Assembly (NCBI GenBank): GCA_005191425.1
Contig: SUPR01000026.1
Span: forward strand, 1 to 32,000
Source of the DNA: Candidatus Helarchaeota ASGARD archaeon Hel_GB_B
GTDB lineage: Archaea > Asgardarchaeota > Lokiarchaeia > Helarchaeales > HEL-GB-B
DNA length: 32,000 nt
Direction of reading: 5' to 3'
Shown here: positions 6,378 to 32,000 of the stretch, one piece after another
How positions within the stretch are numbered: position 1 is the stretch's first letter
Layout: each line of letters starts with the position of its first letter
Made by a program: the position numbers and the translations under genes
Notes under the pieces: model-generated
What the model was told of the DNA's origin: nothing
Database searches by the model: none
Seen by the model: the letters and a program-made list of their open reading frames with translations, nothing else

Positions 6378-8312
6378 GTGAATAAACACCAAAAAATTTC
6401 AAAAATAAATAAAATAATAGATGTGATTAATGTGGTAATTCCTAGTTTTGCTCTTGATTCGCCCGGTGAAAAAGTATTTTTACTAGGAAATGAAGCAATT
6501 GCGAGAGGTGCATTAGAAGCGGGTGTCCGGGTTGTAGCTGGCTATCCAGGTACTCCATCTACTGAAATCGTAGAAACAATCAGTAAAATGGTACATTATT
6601 ATCCTGATATTTATGTAGAATGGTCTATAAATGAGAAAGTTGCTTTTGAAACGGCATTTGGTGGTCAAATGTGTGGACTCAGGTCTGCAGTTAGTTTAAA
6701 ACATGTCGGTCTAAATGTTGCAGCAGACCCATTTTTGACTGCATCATATGCTGGCGCAAAAGGTGGCTTTGTAATTTTAGACGCAGATGACCCTAATTGT
6801 TATTCATCTCAAAATGAACAAGATAATAGATTATTTGCAAGACATGCTTTATGTCCTGTTTTCGAACCATTAAATGTTAATGAAGCTAAAGAAATGACAA
6901 AATTTGCATTCGATTTTTCAGAAAAATTTCAGACAATAGTTTTACTTAGGTCAACAACTCGATTGAGTCATTCAAGAGGCGATGTTATACTTGGAGAAAT
7001 TAAGCCAATAAAAAAAAGGGGAGCATTTGATTTTAATAAAGAAAGATGGACATTTTTACCTGTTAATGCAAGAAAATATAGAAAAATTATGCTTGAAAGG
7101 TTTCATAAAATTGAGAATGCAGTAAATGATATACCATTTAATAATTTACATCAAATTGATGGTAAAGAAATTGGAATTATTGCATCTGGTCTACCAAATG
7201 CATATGTAATCGATTATTTGAAGGATAACAAATTAGAAGATGAAATTTCTTATTTAAAAATAGCTACATCTTATCCTCCTCCTAAAAAATTGATCGAACA
7301 AATGATTATCGATTTAAAACGTGTGCTTGTAATTGAAGAACTAGAACCGTTTATTGAAGATTTTGTAAAGATATATGCTAAAGAAATAAACCCCTCCCTT
7401 GAAGTCGTGGGAAAAGAGATTGTCCCGCGAAATGGTGAATTAAATCCACAGATTATTCATTCAGTTATTAACAAATTTTTGAATAAAAATGATTTAATTA
7501 ATAATAATAACATAAAATTTGATATCATGGCTCCACCTCGACCTCCAGTATTATGTCCTGGCTGTCCACATAGGGCAACTTTTTATGCATTAAAAAAAGC
7601 AGAAAAAAGGTCTAAGAGTAGATTTATTTACAGTTCAGATATTGGGTGTTATACACTTGGATTTTACCCACCAATCGAAACCATTCATACTTGTCTTTGT
7701 ATGGGTGGGTCTATTGGAATGGCAAATGGAATATCTAAATCAGGTGAAACCAACCCAATTTTTGCAATTTTAGGCGATTCCACATTTTTTCATTCTGGGA
7801 TCCCCTCATTAGCCAATCTCGTTTATAATAAAAGTAAAGTTAATGTGCTGGTACTTGACAATTTATCTACTGCCATGACTGGATTTCAAGACCATCCTGG
7901 AACCGGAGTCCGAATAACTGGTGAAAAAACTACGCGAATTCTTATTGAAAATATCGGTAAAGGGTTAGGTGTTGAATTCATTAGAGTTTTTGACCCCTAT
8001 GATTTAAAAAATAGTATTAATACTTTAATTGAAGCCATAAATTATAGTAATGGCCCAACTTTATTAATTTCTCGCCGTCAATGTTCCCTATTAGCAACTC
8101 GAATTAAGAAAAAGTCTGGAGAAAAAATTAATATATATAAAATTGACAATGAAAAATGTACTGGCTGTAGAATTTGCACCTCAACTTTCGGTTGCCCAGC
8201 TTTTTCTATTAATGAAGAAAAAAACGAAATAGAAATAGTCGAAAGTATGTGCTCAGGTTGTGGGGTGTGTGTAGAAATTTGCCCAGAAAAAGCAATTTAT
8301 AAAGTTGAATAA
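6378..8312 (+). CDS. iorA: Indolepyruvate:ferredoxin oxidoreductase alpha subunit (true start may be GTG 6423 or 6432)
   Basis: LLGNEAIARG, GYPGTPSTE, NEKVAFE, KHVGLNVAAD, SSQNEQD, CPGCPHR, DIGCYTLG, TPP motif GDSTFFHSG, and C-terminal CxxCxxC ferredoxin motifs. Confidence 0.93.
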   Translation: MNKHQKISKINKIIDVINVVIPSFALDSPGEKVFLLGNEAIARGALEAGVRVVAGYPGTPSTEIVETISKMVHYYPDIYVEWSINEKVAFETAFGGQMCGLRSAVSLKHVGLNVAADPFLTASYAGAKGGFVILDADDPNCYSSQNEQDNRLFARHALCPVFEPLNVNEAKEMTKFAFDFSEKFQTIVLLRSTTRLSHSRGDVILGEIKPIKKRGAFDFNKERWTFLPVNARKYRKIMLERFHKIENAVNDIPFNNLHQIDGKEIGIIASGLPNAYVIDYLKDNKLEDEISYLKIATSYPPPKKLIEQMIIDLKRVLVIEELEPFIEDFVKIYAKEINPSLEVVGKEIVPRNGELNPQIIHSVINKFLNKNDLINNNNIKFDIMAPPRPPVLCPGCPHRATFYALKKAEKRSKSRFIYSSDIGCYTLGFYPPIETIHTCLCMGGSIGMANGISKSGETNPIFAILGDSTFFHSGIPSLANLVYNKSKVNVLVLDNLSTAMTGFQDHPGTGVRITGEKTTRILIENIGKGLGVEFIRVFDPYDLKNSINTLIEAINYSNGPTLLISRRQCSLLATRIKKKSGEKINIYKIDNEKCTGCRICTSTFGCPAFSINEEKNEIEIVESMCSGCGVCVEICPEKAIYKVE

Positions 8313-8338
8313 ACTAATACATAAAGTGAAAACGAAAA

Positions 8339-9082
8339 ATGAATGAAGAAAATGCAGTAAAAATATATGTTAATAATAAAATTAACAAATTTATAATTAT
8401 TTTGCTAAGTATTTCTGCAATAATCTTAATAACCATAACATTATTTGTTAGCGATGTGGCTATTTCATTAAACATTAACCATTTTACTCAAACTCCTTCA
8501 GCAGGATTTTTAAATGCGTTCTTTATATTCTACACTAATTTCCTCATTTATGCGTTTATCGTTTCTATTTACATATTGGGTCTGCTCTCTTTTTTAAAAA
8601 TAAAAAAATTGGAATTCCTTGAACAATGGCGCCCTACTCTTATAAGTTGTATTTTATCTTGGATTTTTGGTGAAATTATTGTTAATTCAATAAAATATAC
8701 TGTATTACGTCCACGTCCATTTAATTATTTCTCGCCCTCTCAGTTTTCTCCTATTAGTCATGCAGAAGGCCCAAGCTTCCCGTCAGGGCATTCCGCAGCA
8801 GCTTTTAACAGTAGTATGCCATTATTGTATAAGACAAATAATTTCTGGATCAAATTAGTATACATTTTATACGCAAGCTTGATGGCTTTTTCAAGGGTTT
8901 ATGTTGGAGTCCATTGGACAACTGATGTTTTGGTAGGAATGTTAATTGGAATTGGGATTTCCTTCTTAGTTTCAATTGGTTATCCTAAATTATTAAATAA
9001 ATTTGAAAATAAAACAAAAATAGAGTTTATATCTTGGATTATCCTACTTACTTTAGGAATAATATGGATAATAATTTTCTAA
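8339..9082 (+). CDS. PAP2-family membrane phosphatase
   Basis: KxxxxRPRP, SFPSGH and SRVYVGVHWTTD catalytic motifs; several hydrophobic TM segments. Confidence 0.9.
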   Translation: MNEENAVKIYVNNKINKFIIILLSISAIILITITLFVSDVAISLNINHFTQTPSAGFLNAFFIFYTNFLIYAFIVSIYILGLLSFLKIKKLEFLEQWRPTLISCILSWIFGEIIVNSIKYTVLRPRPFNYFSPSQFSPISHAEGPSFPSGHSAAAFNSSMPLLYKTNNFWIKLVYILYASLMAFSRVYVGVHWTTDVLVGMLIGIGISFLVSIGYPKLLNKFENKTKIEFISWIILLTLGIIWIIIF

Positions 9083-9091
9083 ATATTTTTT

Positions 9092-9916
9092 TTATTTATA
9101 ATTTTTTACAAGATTTTTTCCTATTTCAAGAGCTTTTAAGTTTACTTCCACTATTTTTGAGCTGAATAGTTTTTTAATCGCATTTTTAATAGATTCTTCT
9201 TTTAATGGTATTTTATTTGTCCCTAATAAAGCTCCAATCATTATTGTATTTGTCATTCGGATATCTCCCAGTTCAATCGCAGACTTCGATGCCTGTATAA
9301 TGAAACTATTCTTAGAGACATTTAAAAGTACGTTCTTTATTTCAGATAATTCTGGATAACTTATTTCCTTAACTAATGTAATAGCATTTTGACTACAGAT
9401 ATCCATGCACCTCTTACATCCAGTACAACCTTCCAAGATTTGACATATTCCATTTGTTATTTTTGAAGCTGGAAAATCTATTACCGCTAATAAATTTGAA
9501 TTTTTATAGTAATAATTTACATAACAATTAATTTTGCAATTTCCACAGCCTATACAAACTTCTGGGTCTACTTTAATATGCTGGCCCCTAAATAATATTG
9601 GTGGAATTATTACTTCATTATTTACTAAAAGTATTCCATCTTTTTTTAAATAATCTATATACCTTAATGCTTCAGCTAATTCGAATGCAATAATGACATC
9701 AGCAGAATGTTTATTAACAAGCGGACTTTCTACTGTAGGCCCAAATCGCAAATGTACAATTACAGAGCCGCCTCTTTGCGCCATACCATGCGTTTCTGCA
9801 GTCCGGAGTTTATAACTTATGTCTAAATCAAGTACCGCCCAACCAATCACTGTTGATGCCCTAATTACTCCTTGACCACCTGTTCCTACAATTACAATAG
9901 AAAAATTCTTGCCCAT
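9092..9916 (-). CDS. iorB: Indolepyruvate oxidoreductase beta subunit with an inserted 2[4Fe-4S] ferredoxin domain
   Basis: GTGGQG, AETHGMAQRGGSV, ADVIIAFELAEALR and MTNTIMIGA; internal CIGCGNCKINC and CTGCKRCMDIC. Confidence 0.88.
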   Translation of the reverse strand: MGKNFSIVIVGTGGQGVIRASTVIGWAVLDLDISYKLRTAETHGMAQRGGSVIVHLRFGPTVESPLVNKHSADVIIAFELAEALRYIDYLKKDGILLVNNEVIIPPILFRGQHIKVDPEVCIGCGNCKINCYVNYYYKNSNLLAVIDFPASKITNGICQILEGCTGCKRCMDICSQNAITLVKEISYPELSEIKNVLLNVSKNSFIIQASKSAIELGDIRMTNTIMIGALLGTNKIPLKEESIKNAIKKLFSSKIVEVNLKALEIGKNLVKNYK

Positions 9917-24354: not shown

Positions 24355-25032
24355 ATGATAAAAATGAGTGAATTTGAGGAACAAAAAAAGATAGTTTTAG
24401 ATGCAGCTAAGACTTTTTTAAGAACCGGGCTTACTGTAGGGACTTCAGGTAATATTAGTCTAAGGACAGGCAAAAAAGCCACTACTATGGCAATAACTCC
24501 TAGTAGTAGAGAATATGACGAATTGACTTTGGACGATATAATAATTGTAGACTTCTCAGATGAAGAAGATAATATCAAAGTTATTGAAGGAAATTGGTCT
24601 CCATCTTCAGAAACAATTTTGCATTCATATATTTATAAAAAAAGAAAAAAGATTAACGCAATAATTCATTATCACCCAGTATTCTCAACAGCATGTGGTC
24701 TTGTTCTAGATGAATTACCTGCAATTCTTGATGACCAGACTTTTTTCCTTGGTGGAGCAATACCTGTTACAAAAGAATATGCAGTTTCTGGCTCGAAAGA
24801 GCTTGCTCGTCAAGTACAAGAACTTATTGCTAATACAAATGCAATAATTATTAGAAATCATGGTTCTATCGGAATTGGAAAAAACATTGAATATGCTTTT
24901 GAAGCATGTCAGTTATTGGAGAAAACCGCAAAGATTTATGTTTATGCTAAATTATTGGGTGGAAACATTAAATTTATGGACGAAAAGTCAATAAAAAATA
25001 ATATCGGCCTATTTAAAGCGATAAGAAAATAA
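24355..25032 (+). CDS. Class II aldolase/adducin family (fuculose-1-phosphate aldolase-like; start may be ATG 24364)
   Basis: GTSGNIS, ITPS, PSSE..LH..IY, IIHYHP and IIRNHG (Zn ligands). Confidence 0.9.
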   Translation: MIKMSEFEEQKKIVLDAAKTFLRTGLTVGTSGNISLRTGKKATTMAITPSSREYDELTLDDIIIVDFSDEEDNIKVIEGNWSPSSETILHSYIYKKRKKINAIIHYHPVFSTACGLVLDELPAILDDQTFFLGGAIPVTKEYAVSGSKELARQVQELIANTNAIIIRNHGSIGIGKNIEYAFEACQLLEKTAKIYVYAKLLGGNIKFMDEKSIKNNIGLFKAIRK

Positions 25033-25067: not shown

Positions 25068-26165
25068 ATGAATAAAAAAAACATAACCGTCCTATTTCAA
25101 AATCCGGACACTTTAGATTCGATTGAAATTAAAATTGAAAATAAAAATTATTATATAAGAGATATTGCCGAACAAATAATAGACAAATTTAATTTAAAAT
25201 CTCCTCCAATATTTTTTACGATTTTTAAAGACAAACCAACTGAAAATCAATATTTAGAAGAAAATGATAAATTAATTGATGTATTAGAAAAAAGATTAGA
25301 TGAAAAAATACCTATTTGGTGGCGGTCTAGTGATTTAAATGAAGACATTATGTATAATTTAAGAGTTAACAGATTTATTAAATCTGGATATAAAATCGAT
25401 ATAATCAAAAATAAGAATATTATGATCGTAGGTATTGGGCTATTAGGCTCAGAACTTGCTTTACATTGCGCCACAATTGGTATTAAAAATATTACGGTTA
25501 TTGATTATGGTTCTGTAGACTGGTATAATATTTATAGACAACCTTTATACACTAAAAATGATGTATTTAAAAGAAAAGTAGATGTGGCAAAAAATAAACT
25601 AGAATCAATAGGTGGAATAAATGTCAATTCAATATACATAGAAATTCCAAATTTTAATTCCTTGAATATAGAAAAAGATGTTGTTTTAAAGAACATCAAT
25701 ATATTAGAAAAAGCAGTAGAAAAAAATGACATAATTATCACCTCTTTGGATACTTTTAGTGCTAGAATGATAATTCAAATCCTTGCACTTGTCCATAATA
25801 AAATTTTAATAAATACAGCTGCAGGTCTTATCGGGGGGATTATTCAAATTATAAGACCTTTTCAAGACCCTTGTATTGGATGCGGTACATTTTATGATAG
25901 AAATCAAGAAACTGGTGCATGTACATTAGCTTCCTTTGGAACTCCTAAAATAATTGCTGGATTATGTATTGATGTCCTACTTGACTTAATAGAAAACAGA
26001 AAAATAGAATTTAATTATTTAAAATTCCTTCCAAATTACACTATTGAGACTAAAACTTTCTTTAAGGCAGATAATTGTCAATTCTGTGGTGAAAATGGCA
26101 TTGCTTCAGTGTACAATAAAAATTATAAAAAGGAATTACTCAACTGGTTATTTAATAATCATTAA
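25068..26165 (+). CDS. ThiF/MoeB/E1-like activating enzyme with an N-terminal beta-grasp-like domain
   Basis: GIGLLG, ID.G.VD..NIYRQ, KV, LDTFSAR, Zn site PCIGC...CQFC, and candidate catalytic Cys in ETGACT. Confidence 0.88.
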   Translation: MNKKNITVLFQNPDTLDSIEIKIENKNYYIRDIAEQIIDKFNLKSPPIFFTIFKDKPTENQYLEENDKLIDVLEKRLDEKIPIWWRSSDLNEDIMYNLRVNRFIKSGYKIDIIKNKNIMIVGIGLLGSELALHCATIGIKNITVIDYGSVDWYNIYRQPLYTKNDVFKRKVDVAKNKLESIGGINVNSIYIEIPNFNSLNIEKDVVLKNINILEKAVEKNDIIITSLDTFSARMIIQILALVHNKILINTAAGLIGGIIQIIRPFQDPCIGCGTFYDRNQETGACTLASFGTPKIIAGLCIDVLLDLIENRKIEFNYLKFLPNYTIETKTFFKADNCQFCGENGIASVYNKNYKKELLNWLFNNH

Positions 26166-27502: not shown

Positions 27503-28885
27503 ATGAAGTATTCGGATAAAATAGATGTATTTGACGATATGGGAAATAATATTGCTGAGGATCTACCGATTGAGAGTTTATCACCATTAATAAATCCATT
27601 TATACTTGACATTTTGAACTTTTTTAAACGGACTGCATTTGTTAATCTTAAAAAGTTAGAATTCATGCTACAAAGCGGTCAGATTGGGTACACAAGTTCT
27701 ATGAAGCAAGATGAAATTCAAATATCCTGTTATACCCGTCCTTGGGAAATAATTGAAAATGCAGAAGCTTTAATTGACCTAATCAAGAAAAAGATCCAAG
27801 TATCTGAGAATGATGATTCAAATGTTGTTTTGCTACCAGGAAATGAAGTATTAATGGTACAACTCCCTAAAGAACGGATTAGAGCTGCTGCAGGACGCGA
27901 CTCAGCTTTTTCAATTGCAGGTGAAGCCACTTTACAAGCTATATCTGAAGTTCATAATATAACTCCTTTGTCCGACCCTGATGGTTGTAATATTTTAAAA
28001 AGTATCATTTTTGGAAGATATCCACAAACAAGGACATTTCCCCCAAGAAATCCGTTGTTTACACTTCTCCACCCGTTTCATACTCAAGAAGGATTAGGAA
28101 ATGGATTTAGGGGCATTACAATTAATCATATTGTCGCTTTAACACAAAAAAGAACTTTTGACGCGGTAATCTTAAGTACAATTCTTGAACAAGCTTCCCA
28201 ATTTGAAATGGGAAATACTATTGGATGGTTTGAACGGTATAACTTGCTCGGAATGGCATATCAAAGTTTCAATGCAGACCGCGTCTTACTTGACCTTATT
28301 GATGAAAATAAAAATGGGACGGTAGGTGATGTGGTTACTTCCTTAGTAAGAATTGGAATTGAAGATGATATTATTAAACCAAAAAAGAGGTCTTATCCTT
28401 ATAAATTGTTCTCTGGATATAAAATATATTCAGTAAAAGATTATGATATGTGGAATGCATATACTTGTGCTGGACTGTTAGCAGCAGTTCTTGTAAATTG
28501 TGGTGCAAGTAGAAGTGCACAATCTATATCTTCAGCTATTACTAGTTTTTGTGATTTATTAATGTTTGAATCTGGTGGCCTACCCGATCCTGATTGCGGA
28601 AGGGTTATGGGTACAGGCCTTGGACTAAGTCATTTTAATCATGACATTTTCAGTATTGGTGGAACCGGTCTTTTATCATTAGATAATGTTTTAATTAGAA
28701 ATAATTCGGGTTTTGTTGCACCTTGTCTTGCAGCTGCAATGAGTTTAGATAGTGGAACTCAATTATATCGCCCCGAAGTTACTTCTGAAATATTTTTTAA
28801 AATTAGGGAAGCTGACCCGATTTTTAAAGGCCCTCTTATTAATAAAGTTGTTGAGTCAGCTCTAGAAATCAAACATAAAATCTAA
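27503..28885 (+). CDS. mcrB: Methyl/alkyl-coenzyme M reductase beta subunit homologue (divergent)
   Basis: DKIDVFDD.G, LSPL.NP, KRT..VNL, GRYPQ, QEG.G, LSTILEQ..QFEMG..IG.FER, WNAY..AG and AAAMSLD.GTQ are colinear with McrB. Confidence 0.93.
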   Translation: MKYSDKIDVFDDMGNNIAEDLPIESLSPLINPFILDILNFFKRTAFVNLKKLEFMLQSGQIGYTSSMKQDEIQISCYTRPWEIIENAEALIDLIKKKIQVSENDDSNVVLLPGNEVLMVQLPKERIRAAAGRDSAFSIAGEATLQAISEVHNITPLSDPDGCNILKSIIFGRYPQTRTFPPRNPLFTLLHPFHTQEGLGNGFRGITINHIVALTQKRTFDAVILSTILEQASQFEMGNTIGWFERYNLLGMAYQSFNADRVLLDLIDENKNGTVGDVVTSLVRIGIEDDIIKPKKRSYPYKLFSGYKIYSVKDYDMWNAYTCAGLLAAVLVNCGASRSAQSISSAITSFCDLLMFESGGLPDPDCGRVMGTGLGLSHFNHDIFSIGGTGLLSLDNVLIRNNSGFVAPCLAAAMSLDSGTQLYRPEVTSEIFFKIREADPIFKGPLINKVVESALEIKHKI

Positions 28886-28899
28886 GGTGTGCATTAGAA

Positions 28900-29709
28900 A
28901 TGCCAATGAGTGAACGAAGAAAAAAGAAAAAAATTAAAGAATTTGAACCACAATACTATCCTGAATGTGATTACGTTGCTGAAAGACGCCGTAAAATTAT
29001 AAACCCAAATCGAAGACTAACAAAATTACGTCACATTCCTGACGATAATATAATTTCTTTATTAGGACATAGAGCTCCGGGTGGACTATACACTTCTATT
29101 CATCCTCCACTTGATGAATTGATGGAATCTTTTGACCCAATTAAAGAATTGATAGTCCCAAGTGATGGAGCAAAAATGGGTGATCGTATACGATTTGTCC
29201 AAATAATTGATTCATTTTGGAGACCACCTGTTGCACCATGGTTAAGGCATAAGTTTTATTTTACAAGGTTTAGAGGGGCTGATGTTGTAATTGATGCTGA
29301 AAGAACACTATTAGAAATGAGAGAACGTGATGTTGAAGCAGCAACAAAACTTCTCCTTGAAATGGAATTATTTGATCCCTCTAGAACTTCCTTAAAATCT
29401 GTTTCGCATGGTGGATATTCACATAGATTAGATGAAAACGAATTATCTTTTGATTTGCGGAGAAGATGTATTCTTGACAAAGAATCAGGGCATATAATTT
29501 ACGTCAAAAATATGTCTGGCGAAATATTAGACAAACCTATTTCATTGGGTTTTCCTATAGCTGATGAAGATCTGAAAACTATTGACGTTACTTGGCGCTG
29601 GGACAGTTCTCAATATAAGTCAAAAAGCGAAATCTTAATGGTCTTAAGTCGTATAGCTGAGAACCGTATTTTGGGAGGTTTTAAACCTAATATGTTAAAT
29701 TATAGGTGA
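28900..29709 (+). CDS. mcrG: Methyl/alkyl-coenzyme M reductase gamma subunit homologue (divergent)
   Basis: PQYYP, LLGHRAPG, SIHPPL, GAK.GDRIR..Q..DS, RFRGAD, RERD.E, FDP.R and RLDEN...FD.RRR. Confidence 0.92.
   Translation: MPMSERRKKKKIKEFEPQYYPECDYVAERRRKIINPNRRLTKLRHIPDDNIISLLGHRAPGGLYTSIHPPLDELMESFDPIKELIVPSDGAKMGDRIRFVQIIDSFWRPPVAPWLRHKFYFTRFRGADVVIDAERTLLEMRERDVEAATKLLLEMELFDPSRTSLKSVSHGGYSHRLDENELSFDLRRRCILDKESGHIIYVKNMSGEILDKPISLGFPIADEDLKTIDVTWRWDSSQYKSKSEILMVLSRIAENRILGGFKPNMLNYR
29704..29709 (+). promoter_or_regulatory. RBS-like AGGTGA for mcrA, overlapping the mcrG stop
   Basis: AGGTGA 6 nt upstream of ATG 29716; supports translational coupling of the operon. Confidence 0.55.
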
Positions 29710-29715
29710 ATTAAA

Positions 29716-31539
29716 ATGAGTGGACCGTTAAAAAAAGGAAAATTACCAAAAGAATTAACAAGTCAAATGGAAGCAACAGCAGCTGCCTCTCAATATCTTC
29801 GACAGGCAGTAAAAAATATGCGTGATTTTATACCACTTGAAAAGCAACGCCGAATATATAAAGATCTTGAAAAAATGTTTGGTGTTGACCCGTTAAACCT
29901 AATTGATGAAAAAATGTATATGAGAAAAGGATTTAACCAGTCCGCAGCGATAATGAAAAATAAAGAATTAGGTAGATTAATCGCTTTAGACCGTTTTATT
30001 CCAATGTATGACCCAAGTGTAAGTGAACCAATTGGTCATCAGCAATTATTTCCATATAAAATATCTGGTACTGACGAAATTGTATCTGGAAATTCTCTTC
30101 ATTGTTTCAATAATGTCGCGATGCAACAGTTATTTGATGATGTCAGACGCACTACAATTTTAAATCTTGATGTCCCTCACAAAGTGATTCAAGTGCGAGC
30201 AAGTAAAGAGGTTACACCTGAAACTATTGATCATTTTCTTAAAACTTTACAACATACAATTGCAGGTGGTACTGTTTCACTTGATCAGTTTGCTGATATA
30301 AATCCTGAATTAACCAGAGATGCATATTGTAAAATAATCACGGGAAATGACGAATTAAGAGAATTAATTGATAATAGATTTTCTATTGACATTAATGCCG
30401 GCTTTCATAAATCTAGAGCTGAAAAGTTAAAACATGCAATTGGTGATACAATACATTTAGTTGTTAGAGCACCAACAATACTAGTAAGAGCATTAGATAA
30501 TTCAGTTGCTTTTAAATGGGCCGGAATCCAGAGTACTCTGGCATTTATCGTTGCTTATCGTTTGACCAAAGATTCTAACCTTGCAGATATTTCATATGCA
30601 ACTCAATATGCTAATACCATAGCTCTTGGAGAACCTACATGGCAATCATTAGGCGGACATTATAATTCAATCGCCGGTATTCCTTTTGGCTATATAGCTG
30701 ATATGTGTCAAGGTGATTCTCAATTACCTTTAAGACCTTTTATGGAAATTACAAATGAAGACCCCAAATTGTCTCGTGAATATTTAAAAAAGTCTATTGG
30801 GTGTGTAGGCGTTATCGCTCCCATTTTAACAAATTTTTGGGATGGATATCAACTGTCTGGTGGTGCCAATATCCTTGATAATGTTGTTATAGACACCTTT
30901 ACTGGTGGTATATTTGATGATTTTATTGATATTATGAATGATATGATGAACAAATATTTTTCGCGTATTGTCAAAATTGGCATGAATTTAATGCCAACTC
31001 GCTGGTATAATTTAAGATGGCCAGTTGAAAATATGGTAAATATTGTTATGGAAACAATGGAAAAATATCCATCGGCTATGGAAACTTTAAAACTAGGTAT
31101 TCAAAAAATGTATATAATTGGGCTCGTAGCAGGGATAATGGCATCTCTCTTATCTGGAAGTTCAACTGCTGGATTATGGGCTATTGATTATGCAATCAGT
31201 CTTTTAGTAAAAGAGGGTTGGTGCCGCACAGGGACAACTGGCTATGAAATTATCAATCAATTAGGGCTCCCTTATTCATGTTCATTACGTATTGAAGAAG
31301 GTGGATTACCAGAACTAAGAGGTATGAATAATTTTCATCAAATCCATTCAATTGGTAGCGCAGTCCCCAGAATCGCTGTATTATATGCAGCTGCACTAGC
31401 CCGGGGGGATGCTTGGGTATCAAGCCCTCTAATTAAAGTAGTTTTCAATGACCCTCACCTTTCATTTGATTTTAAAGACCCAATATCTGCTATTATTAAA
31501 GGTACAAAAGGTGAATTTAAACCTAAAGGAGAAAGTTAA
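29716..31539 (+). CDS. mcrA: Methyl/alkyl-coenzyme M reductase alpha subunit homologue, ACR-like and highly degenerate at the active site
   Basis: IPMYDP, LH..NN.AMQQ..DD.RRT, KEVTPETI, TGNDE, G.PFGY.AD.CQ, SGG, GLPYSCSLRIEEGGLPELRG, ARGDAW and PLIKV.F.D..L.FDF. Confidence 0.93.
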   Translation: MSGPLKKGKLPKELTSQMEATAAASQYLRQAVKNMRDFIPLEKQRRIYKDLEKMFGVDPLNLIDEKMYMRKGFNQSAAIMKNKELGRLIALDRFIPMYDPSVSEPIGHQQLFPYKISGTDEIVSGNSLHCFNNVAMQQLFDDVRRTTILNLDVPHKVIQVRASKEVTPETIDHFLKTLQHTIAGGTVSLDQFADINPELTRDAYCKIITGNDELRELIDNRFSIDINAGFHKSRAEKLKHAIGDTIHLVVRAPTILVRALDNSVAFKWAGIQSTLAFIVAYRLTKDSNLADISYATQYANTIALGEPTWQSLGGHYNSIAGIPFGYIADMCQGDSQLPLRPFMEITNEDPKLSREYLKKSIGCVGVIAPILTNFWDGYQLSGGANILDNVVIDTFTGGIFDDFIDIMNDMMNKYFSRIVKIGMNLMPTRWYNLRWPVENMVNIVMETMEKYPSAMETLKLGIQKMYIIGLVAGIMASLLSGSSTAGLWAIDYAISLLVKEGWCRTGTTGYEIINQLGLPYSCSLRIEEGGLPELRGMNNFHQIHSIGSAVPRIAVLYAAALARGDAWVSSPLIKVVFNDPHLSFDFKDPISAIIKGTKGEFKPKGES

Positions 31540-31559
31540 ATACTGGATTAGTGGTCAAA

Positions 31560-32000
31560 ATGGAAGATAAAAATAAAAAATATGTTAATGAACCCTGGTG
31601 GAAAAAAGAATTTAAAGATGGATGGTGGAAAGAAGTTTCCTGGATACACCCCCAAGATACTGAACCATCTGGAGTTAGTTTATTCATTGATTATATGCTT
31701 GATAAGGCAATTATCACTCCAGACGCTGTTAAAATAGCAAGTTGGATACCCCATAGGTTAATATTACTGGAAATTGTCCACCCTTTAAAAGGAACTGAGC
31801 GGTTATCTTTTATGATCTCGCCAACTTCTGTTACTCCTGGAATCCCTGACGTAACACCTGATGTAATTGTAACTTACGATTATTATGACCTTGCTAAATT
31901 CTTAATTGGAAGAGAAAAAGATTTCACTATGTCTTTTTGGAAGGGACATTCTAGAATATATGGTAATCTTACTGCATTGATTGATTTAGCTGATATTCTT
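31560..32000 (+). CDS. Partial ORF (not in the ORF track, runs off the window) with an SCP2-like lipid/sterol-binding domain
   Basis: My translation gives 147 uninterrupted codons from ATG 31560: MEDKNKKYVNEPWWKKEFKDGWWKEVSW...PDVIVTYDYYDLAKFLIGREKDFTMSFWKGHSRIYGNLTALIDLADIL. The last 50 aa fit the SCP2 pattern aD.tit...dl..ll.G..d...af..G.lri.Gdl.al..l..ll. Confidence 0.72.
   Translation, partial: MEDKNKKYVNEPWWKKEFKDGWWKEVSWIHPQDTEPSGVSLFIDYMLDKAIITPDAVKIASWIPHRLILLEIVHPLKGTERLSFMISPTSVTPGIPDVTPDVIVTYDYYDLAKFLIGREKDFTMSFWKGHSRIYGNLTALIDLADIL

Follow-up and report, generated by a model that had tools for sequence, protein, structure and literature searches.

The gene described here bears on two questions about archaeal alkyl-coenzyme M reductases (ACRs): how mid- and long-chain alkanes, which do not dissolve in water, reach the buried nickel site, and how the alkyl-CoM is passed on. 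For the ACRs concerned, the models of Lemaire and Wagner (2022; PMC9118554) show an open cleft, and the same authors raised the idea that long alkanes could be brought in by 'hydrocarbon-carrier proteins'. Ca. Alkanophaga growing on C5-C14 alkanes expresses few genes more strongly than the stand-alone acrA of its 'third cluster', a relative of presumed long-chain ACRs (PMC10322722), and Hadarchaeota with the ACR clade discussed below grow on hexadecane and C16-C20 alkanes (PMC10811742, PMC11297162). McrD, a small protein encoded with MCR, binds that enzyme (PMC10288656). SCP2 domains have an alpha/beta fold with a five-stranded sheet packed by helices and a C-terminal helix; the literature that we searched contains no paper linking an SCP2 or sterol carrier protein with MCR, ACR or alkyl-CoM, and the sole SCP2 match was an unrelated Asgard START-protein preprint.

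We describe a small gene, here called X, that follows mcrA in a 32,000-nucleotide stretch of archaeal DNA, referred to as the window. X is apparently undescribed and, with the reservation that its ligand is inferred, is a strong candidate for a part that handles the oily substrate. Across several archaeal phyla it is conserved beside one ACR clade and has evolved together with that enzyme, to which it is probably bound; the binding itself is predicted by a model.

The mcrBGA-X cluster of the window

The window belongs to contig C103 of a MAG (G000; 3.54 Mb, 93.7% complete), and is assigned to the Asgard order Helarchaeales by the names of its homologues and by its kinship with other genomes. 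The features of the cluster are as follows.

27503..28885, + strand: mcrB/acrB homologue, 460 aa, first in the cluster; PF02783 8.7e-34, PF02241 1.3e-78
28900..29709, + strand: mcrG/acrG homologue, 269 aa; PF02240 8.5e-76, TIGR03259 235.7 bits
29716..31539, + strand: mcrA/acrA homologue, 607 aa; PF02745 2.7e-72, PF02249 1.2e-7; in the X-linked ACR clade by tree
31540..31559, + strand: spacer of 20 nt from the mcrA stop to the X start
31560..32000, + strand: X (SCP2-fold protein), residues 1-147 of 171 within the window; ATG at 31560
31560..32075 on the contig, + strand: X, full gene, 171 aa; TAA at 32073-32075
32081-32085: T5 tract, 5 nt after the X stop and beyond the window

The mcrB/acrB homologue scores under the TIGR03257 equivalog cut-off, and the McrA reaches 361 bits against a TIGR03256 cut-off of 768 bits. 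All four genes lie on one strand with spacers of 14, 6 and 20 nt, the last of which appears to leave no room for a separate promoter region. AT-rich intergenic regions flank the cluster (~230 bp upstream and ~395 bp downstream), with the T5 tract near the start of the downstream one; oligo-T is the usual archaeal termination signal. Because of the tight spacing, the flanking intergenic regions and the T5 tract, we infer that mcrBGA-X is probably co-transcribed. There are no RNA data, and a promoter and terminator scan of bacterial type was uninformative for this archaeal cluster.

A sequence-only reading of the window had placed a gene 20 bp downstream of mcrA in an ORF running off the window edge, and both claims held: mcrA ends at 31539, the ATG is at 31560, and the frame stays open up to the edge and is completed by contig sequence past 32000 as 171 aa ending at 32075. 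Its description of the gene as unannotated is true only of that reader's ORF track, as public homologues are annotated, as 'hypothetical protein' and in Bathyarchaeota BA2 as 'SCP-2 sterol transfer family protein'. The four-gene module that it proposed held for the window on the spacers, the single strand and the flanking intergenic regions, and the complex model presented below supports the McrA contact; the probable co-transcription is still an inference.

Further upstream in the window are genes for a ThiF/E1-like protein (PF00899) and a class II aldolase (25068-26165 and 24355-25032), and about 395 bp after X the genome has a nucleotidyltransferase gene.

Sequence and fold of X

X is a protein of 19.8 kDa with a pI of 5.8. 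A membrane protein can be ruled out, as there is no hydrophobic segment (maximum KD19 1.35), and X is therefore expected to be soluble and cytoplasmic. It is a real gene, as indicated by purifying selection (dN/dS 0.067 against its nearest relative) and by the 68 columns that are invariant across 23 Helarchaeales homologues; between two Syntrophoarchaeum species dN/dS is 0.11.

The family shares a signature composed of G-W-W, E-P, H-P-x-R-G-x-E, Y-Y-D, G-x5-G-N and R-x3-W-P-x-G-x-P, and the window X holds every element of it: W22/W23, E35-P36, H74-P75, Y108-Y109-D110, G129 and G135-N136, and in the tail R162, W166-P167, G169 and P171. The first of these motifs lies in a conserved, Trp-rich N-terminal extension of ~30 aa, in which W22 is invariant, and the last is a C-terminal tail conserved in most X lineages. 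The duplicated WWK motif pointed out by the sequence-only reading is present (residues 13-15 and 22-24), but only the second region (W22, W23, then W28) is kept family-wide, the first being restricted to close Helarchaeales relatives. Many acidic and polar residues are also conserved (E35, H74, E80, D101, Y108, Y109, D110), exceeding what a passive lipid pocket needs, and this counts against the reading of X as a carrier.

The window X has no match in Pfam at E <= 1 and none in NCBIfam. The SCP2 fold over residues ~30-160 is nonetheless shown by four lines of evidence, with the understanding that it rests on a predicted model and on the family profile. First, searched one by one, 12 of the 22 family sequences hit PF02036, the best at 2.4e-8. 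Second, the family profile matches solved SCP2 sequences across the C-terminal signature (4uei 6.5e-6, 1c44 5.2e-5). Third, a Foldseek search of the PDB with an AF2 model of medium confidence (pLDDT 71.6, pTM 0.68, built on 23 homologues) gives 4jgx as the best match (1.2e-5) and the UbiJ SCP2 domain 6h6n at 6.8e-5; 37 chains score at E <= 1e-3, nearly all of them SCP2 proteins or SCP2-type domains within larger enzymes (alkylsulfatases, MycE), the top 25 are almost all SCP2-type, and human, rabbit and mosquito SCP2 are included. Fourth, an exhaustive VIA scan, which is independent of Foldseek, recovers the same SCP2 proteins (Z 9.3-8.2, 108-116 residues aligned). A shape search of the ESM Atlas with the same model also returns SCP2 clusters. 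We note that 'lipid carrier' is the usual role of this fold and is attributed to X by analogy alone; it has not been demonstrated, and there are no binding data.

The SCP2-like part proposed by the sequence-only reading has thus held. That reading had set beforehand two outcomes that would refute it, the absence of an SCP2 fold and the absence of linkage to mcr in other genomes; both were checked and neither occurred, and the linkage proved far wider than had been guessed, extending over several phyla and one ACR clade.

Linkage of X to one ACR clade

The X family is small, with only 20 relatives returned by an exhaustive HMMER scan of 1.84 billion representatives. Named members are from Helarchaeota, Bathyarchaeota BA2, Ca. 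Alkanophaga and 'Halobacteriota archaeon' MAGs, and X is also found in one Hodarchaeota-labelled and one Deferrimicrobium-labelled MAG, both possibly mis-binned. The second of these, labelled 'Candidatus Deferrimicrobium sp.' and so assigned to a bacterial phylum, carries a Helarchaeales-type mcrGA-X (L012, DATKTP010000015.1) and is probably a binning or labelling error.

A search from the enzyme side, using an alignment of X-linked McrA against GTDB species genomes, yielded 18 loci; according to the family HMM 15 of the loci contain X, which comes immediately after mcrA in 11, and these include Hadarchaeota and Ca. Syntrophoarchaeum. A 401-genome sample added five more Halobacteriota genomes with X, three of which have the order B-G-A-X, while X is divergent from B-G-A in one and unlinked from acr in another. 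Three of the five encode a canonical MCR (~484 bits to PF02745) together with one long divergent ACR, a pattern published for Ca. Methanoliparia, and solely on this pattern we infer that they are Methanoliparia-like; a word-based search with the AcrA of the Alkanophaga clade gave no match named Methanoliparia.

X lies immediately 3' of mcrA in Helarchaeales, Hadarchaeota and Syntrophoarchaeum, X and mcrA are divergent in Bathyarchaeota BA2, and the order in Ca. Alkanophaga is acrB-acrG-X. The Helarchaeota arrangement is [MJ0093-like]-mcrB-G-A-X-[A2 ATPase]; mcrBGA-X occurs there in a second, paralogous operon too. Adjacency of X to mcr or acr thus recurs in at least four archaeal phyla in which the neighbouring genes otherwise differ.

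Several other genes near these clusters can be noted. A2, the MCR-activating ATPase component with two ABC domains, is directly 3' of X in other Helarchaeota (mcrBGA-X-atwA; L002:8547-10172, L003:8543-10180), and in the window's genome it is on a separate contig (G000:C157:8115-9698; 678 bits to TIGR03269). The small MJ0093-family gene (PF27275) is just 5' of mcrB in other Helarchaeota (L002:3666-3893, L003:3701-3955). Ordinary SCP2-domain genes (PF02036) occur a few kb from some of the same mcr clusters, one of 184 aa in BA2 (L004:4007-4561) and one of 118 aa at the second Helarchaeota operon (L007/L008:1581-1937, - strand).

Phylogenetic comparison of McrA shows that the linkage is specific to one clade. 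We collected all mcrA loci of X-holding Syntrophoarchaeia genomes, those of one X-less sister genome, of two ANME-1 genomes and of several Helarchaeales, annotated them with HMMs for McrA, McrB, McrG and X, and built a maximum likelihood tree from 50 non-identical, full-length McrA sequences under LG+G4 by a quick search, with the root placed on ANME-1; genomes with ethane-type ECR were not specifically sampled for the boundary of the clade. Every X-linked McrA falls in a single clade of 30 members with SH-aLRT support of 100. Its alpha subunits are 590-666 aa long and have an N-terminal extension of ~40 aa that is absent from other ACR and MCR and that the window McrA also carries. The clade comprises the Helarchaeales, Hadarchaeota, BA2 and Methanoliparia-like enzymes, plus one copy each in Syntrophoarchaeum and Alkanophaga. 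X is within 50 bp of 22 of the 30 and within 3 kb of three more, leaving five with none nearby; three of these exceptions are stand-alone acrA genes (two Alkanophaga, one G154) whose genomes have X behind an unlinked acrB-acrG (L044, L063, L045), and in the other two one contig stops 256 bp past mcrA and one contig is short. The remaining 20 McrA, which represent other ACR clades, one odd 733-aa copy and ANME-1 MCR, have no X of their own (0/20), none lying within either 50 bp or 3 kb; the sole X within 10 kb of any of them belongs to a neighbouring B-G-X cluster. The Alkanophaga 'third cluster' acrA described above falls in the X clade, and its partner acrBG precedes X. The supplements of PMC10322722 that we examined contain no expression row for X, and the source of its Extended Data Fig. 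3 shows acrG and acrB on contig 2 with the X ORF omitted. That ORF lies immediately 3' of acrG on contig 2 of A. volatiphilum, at about 10.1-10.7 kb, and in A. liquidiphilum X corresponds to protein MDF2955780.1.

Two further observations concern the class of Syntrophoarchaeum. The 733-aa McrA (L040, G231:C1:310174-326980; mcrA 7476-9674) is very divergent, with a long N-terminal extension and a long branch outside the ACR clades, and its genome has four mcrA copies and no X. The G224 and G225 genomes (L051, L052, L056, L057, L058) have 5-9 mcrA copies each.

The distribution across genomes agrees with the tree. Among 151 Lokiarchaeia genomes, mcrA and X are each present in seven, and these are the identical seven genomes, all Helarchaeales; the X/mcrA copy numbers in six of them are 1/1, 1/1, 2/2, 1/1, 3/3 and 4/4, and the seventh, a MAG that is 82% complete, has 3/1. 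In the class of Syntrophoarchaeum (79 genomes) mcrA is found in 67 and X in 7, the ANME-1-type genomes having MCR without X; X was absent from all ANME-1 MCR genomes searched. Of 66 Hadarchaeota genomes, six have mcrA and seven have X, with X in all six mcrA genomes and the other 59 lacking both. We attach no p-value to these counts because related genomes are not independent, and note that the pattern repeats across phyla. X also provides an inexpensive genomic marker for this ACR clade in metagenomes.

X has also diversified together with its enzyme. Over 22 pairs the distances between X proteins correlate with those between the adjacent McrA (r 0.75), and none of 5000 permutations gave a value as high; within the window's subgroup, divergence is 12% in X and 25% in McrA. 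Chance adjacency of X and mcr is essentially ruled out by the phyletic pattern, the clade tree and this distance correlation.

These data bear directly on the possibility that X carries lipids or isoprenoids in general, or serves some unrelated pathway, and sits beside mcr merely through local gene order. SCP2 domains are widespread, other SCP2 genes are found near some of the loci, and one Methanoliparia-like genome has X unlinked from acr, all of which would be compatible with such a role. Against it are the adjacency in at least four phyla with otherwise differing neighbours, the confinement of X in the three lineages sampled to genomes with this ACR clade (in Hadarchaeota six of the seven X genomes have mcrA), the agreement of X copy number with mcrA, and the co-diversification of X with McrA. 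We regard this explanation as all but excluded.

Predicted contact with McrA and the role of X

We modelled McrA alpha alone with X in three runs, using paired custom alignments of 22 rows and three controls. The ipSAE values are 0.73, 0.65 and 0.63 (median 0.65), whereas the best control scored 0.00; the pLDDT of the partner is 79 or higher, and contacts agree between runs to at least 45%. In calibration, 58 of 80 solved complexes and 2 of 110 mismatched pairs attained the mark used for such models, although this calibration is only approximate here because custom alignments were used. To our knowledge no complex like McrA-X has been described, and it is thus unlikely that the score reflects a known structure memorised by the predictor. 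The predicted interface involves residues 121-137 and the conserved tail 161-171 of X, and residues 37-45 and 406-443 of McrA. An independent fit to it comes from the G224 and G225 genomes: their X lacks the R-x3-W-P tail, having a Gly/Met-rich tail instead and an extra insertion after the first long helix, and their McrA has a Gly/Met-rich insertion at about residue 408, at the predicted contact with X. Binding of X to McrA is therefore supported by a controlled model but by no experiment, and binding in the cell is inferred. In the (alpha-beta-gamma)2 enzyme, other subunits may cover the alpha surface at 37-45 and 406-443, and we note that the loop tied by Lemaire and Wagner to the open substrate cleft is absent from the predicted contact list.

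Our preferred interpretation, towards which we lean without being able to claim more, is that X docks on the ACR and holds a hydrophobic ligand, an alkane or an alkyl chain, at the enzyme; both the ligand and binding in the cell are inferred. According to this proposal X would be made from the same transcript as McrBGA, as a soluble accessory partner dedicated to one ACR clade, and would dock on alpha through its conserved C-tail and the loop and strand preceding the last helix. Its hydrophobic SCP2 tunnel would hold a poorly soluble ligand at the ACR, which may be an alkane, or whatever part of a long alkyl chain the enzyme cannot accommodate, much as the UbiJ SCP2 domain presents hydrophobic intermediates to a soluble enzyme complex. 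The carrier delivering or receiving a hydrophobic ligand that the sequence-only reading had suggested is supported as an interpretation, with the ligand and the direction of hand-over remaining inferred. The link of X to long chains is not exclusive, as Syntrophoarchaeum, which oxidises butane and propane, likewise has a copy of the clade with X.

The Helarchaeales enzymes are a particular case. Lemaire and Wagner (2022; PMC9118554) reported a heavily substituted active site in Helarchaeota and Lokiarchaeota MCR sequences, and consequently the substrate of the MCR in the window's genome is unknown. This genome and two others (G000, G012 and G006) have no copy outside the subgroup whose active site is strongly substituted, and X is kept very strictly there; from its strict retention beside an enzyme with a rebuilt pocket we argue that the complex still acts on a hydrophobic molecule.

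Another explanation gives X a part in the structure or assembly of this ACR clade, either as a delta-like subunit or as a maturation chaperone resembling McrD, with the SCP2 fold used for protein contact and not for a ligand. In its favour are the binding supported by the complex model (0.65, with 0.00 for the best control), the conservation of both terminal extensions and the co-variation of X with McrA; furthermore, the window's genome (93.7% complete) yielded neither McrC nor McrD, its congener G012 and also G006 yielded no McrD, and all three genomes keep X. Helarchaeales with additional, less substituted ACR copies (G004, G008, G010) do have McrD. Against this explanation, X has no similarity to McrD or McrC; McrD co-occurs with X in eight of the ten other X genomes tested (Syntrophoarchaeum, Alkanophaga, one Methanoliparia-like genome, Hadarchaeales, BA2 and three Helarchaeales), so that X is no replacement for it; and known SCP2 domains act through a hydrophobic tunnel. 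We consider a purely structural role unlikely.

A further explanation is that X carries the product and not the substrate, either taking the amphipathic alkyl-CoM thioether from the ACR to the unknown enzymes that convert alkyl-CoM to acyl-CoA, or binding long acyl-CoA as eukaryotic SCP2 does. The evidence of fold, linkage and docking is the same as for the preferred interpretation, a polar-headed ligand would be in keeping with the many polar residues conserved in X, and X is the only non-MCR gene that we noticed beside this clade across phyla. SCP2 proteins bind acyl-CoA and fatty acids, and palmitate-bound SCP2 entries are among the structural matches from Foldseek and VIA. However, the conserved charges of X are mostly acidic and would be unfavourable for a sulfonate or CoA head group, and no downstream enzyme is co-conserved beside X, its neighbours varying by lineage. 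This role also seems improbable to us.

Returning to X as a docked holder of a hydrophobic ligand, a bolder form of that reading, which is no more than possible, is that X is a fourth ACR subunit, an SCP2 'antenna' on alpha that would draw alkanes from the membrane or oil phase and extend the substrate tunnel. If true, this would explain how a cytoplasmic nickel enzyme acts on hydrocarbons from C5 to above C16, and the Helarchaeales with a rebuilt active site would use the same module for a still unknown hydrophobic substrate. In either form X is a concrete candidate: it is small, easily expressed and specific to the clade used on petroleum-range alkanes, and it has a predicted contact surface on alpha. 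It may also be needed for heterologous reconstitution of ACRs.

X can be compared with four described systems. It fits the 'hydrocarbon-carrier proteins' postulate (PMC9118554) in having a hydrophobic-ligand fold and in being specific to the clade modelled with an open cleft; that postulate named no gene, and the link to X is drawn here and is untested. McrD and McrC of the canonical mcrBDCGA operons are, like X, small non-catalytic proteins encoded with MCR, but X is tied to one ACR clade and belongs to a different fold class by the matches obtained. As a candidate, a divergent McrD (PF02505) or McrC (PF04609) was rejected, with no match at E <= 1 and with X coexisting with McrD.

The UbiJ SCP2 domain (6h6n/6h6o/6h6p) is a non-catalytic holder of hydrophobic substrate in the soluble ubiquinone-synthesis complex, and matches the X model with a TM by target of 0.68 in addition to the E-value of 6.8e-5. 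UbiJ is bacterial, acts in another pathway and has no detectable sequence relation to X beyond the fold, and the role of X is inferred; it is nevertheless the nearest functional analogy. With the SCP2 domains themselves (PF02036; rabbit 1c44, Yarrowia 4jgx, mosquito 1pz4) X shares the alpha/beta fold and the C-terminal signature, in which the last helix comes after a Gly-x5-Gly-Asn strand, at only ~15% identity and with the window X below the Pfam threshold. Unlike them, it has a Trp-rich N-terminal extension and the R-x3-W-P-x-G-x-P tail, and it is encoded in archaeal mcr/acr clusters and not with thiolase or peroxisomal enzymes. X thus represents a small SCP2-derived family in which a known fold is found in a new setting, a specific partnership with one clade of ACR.
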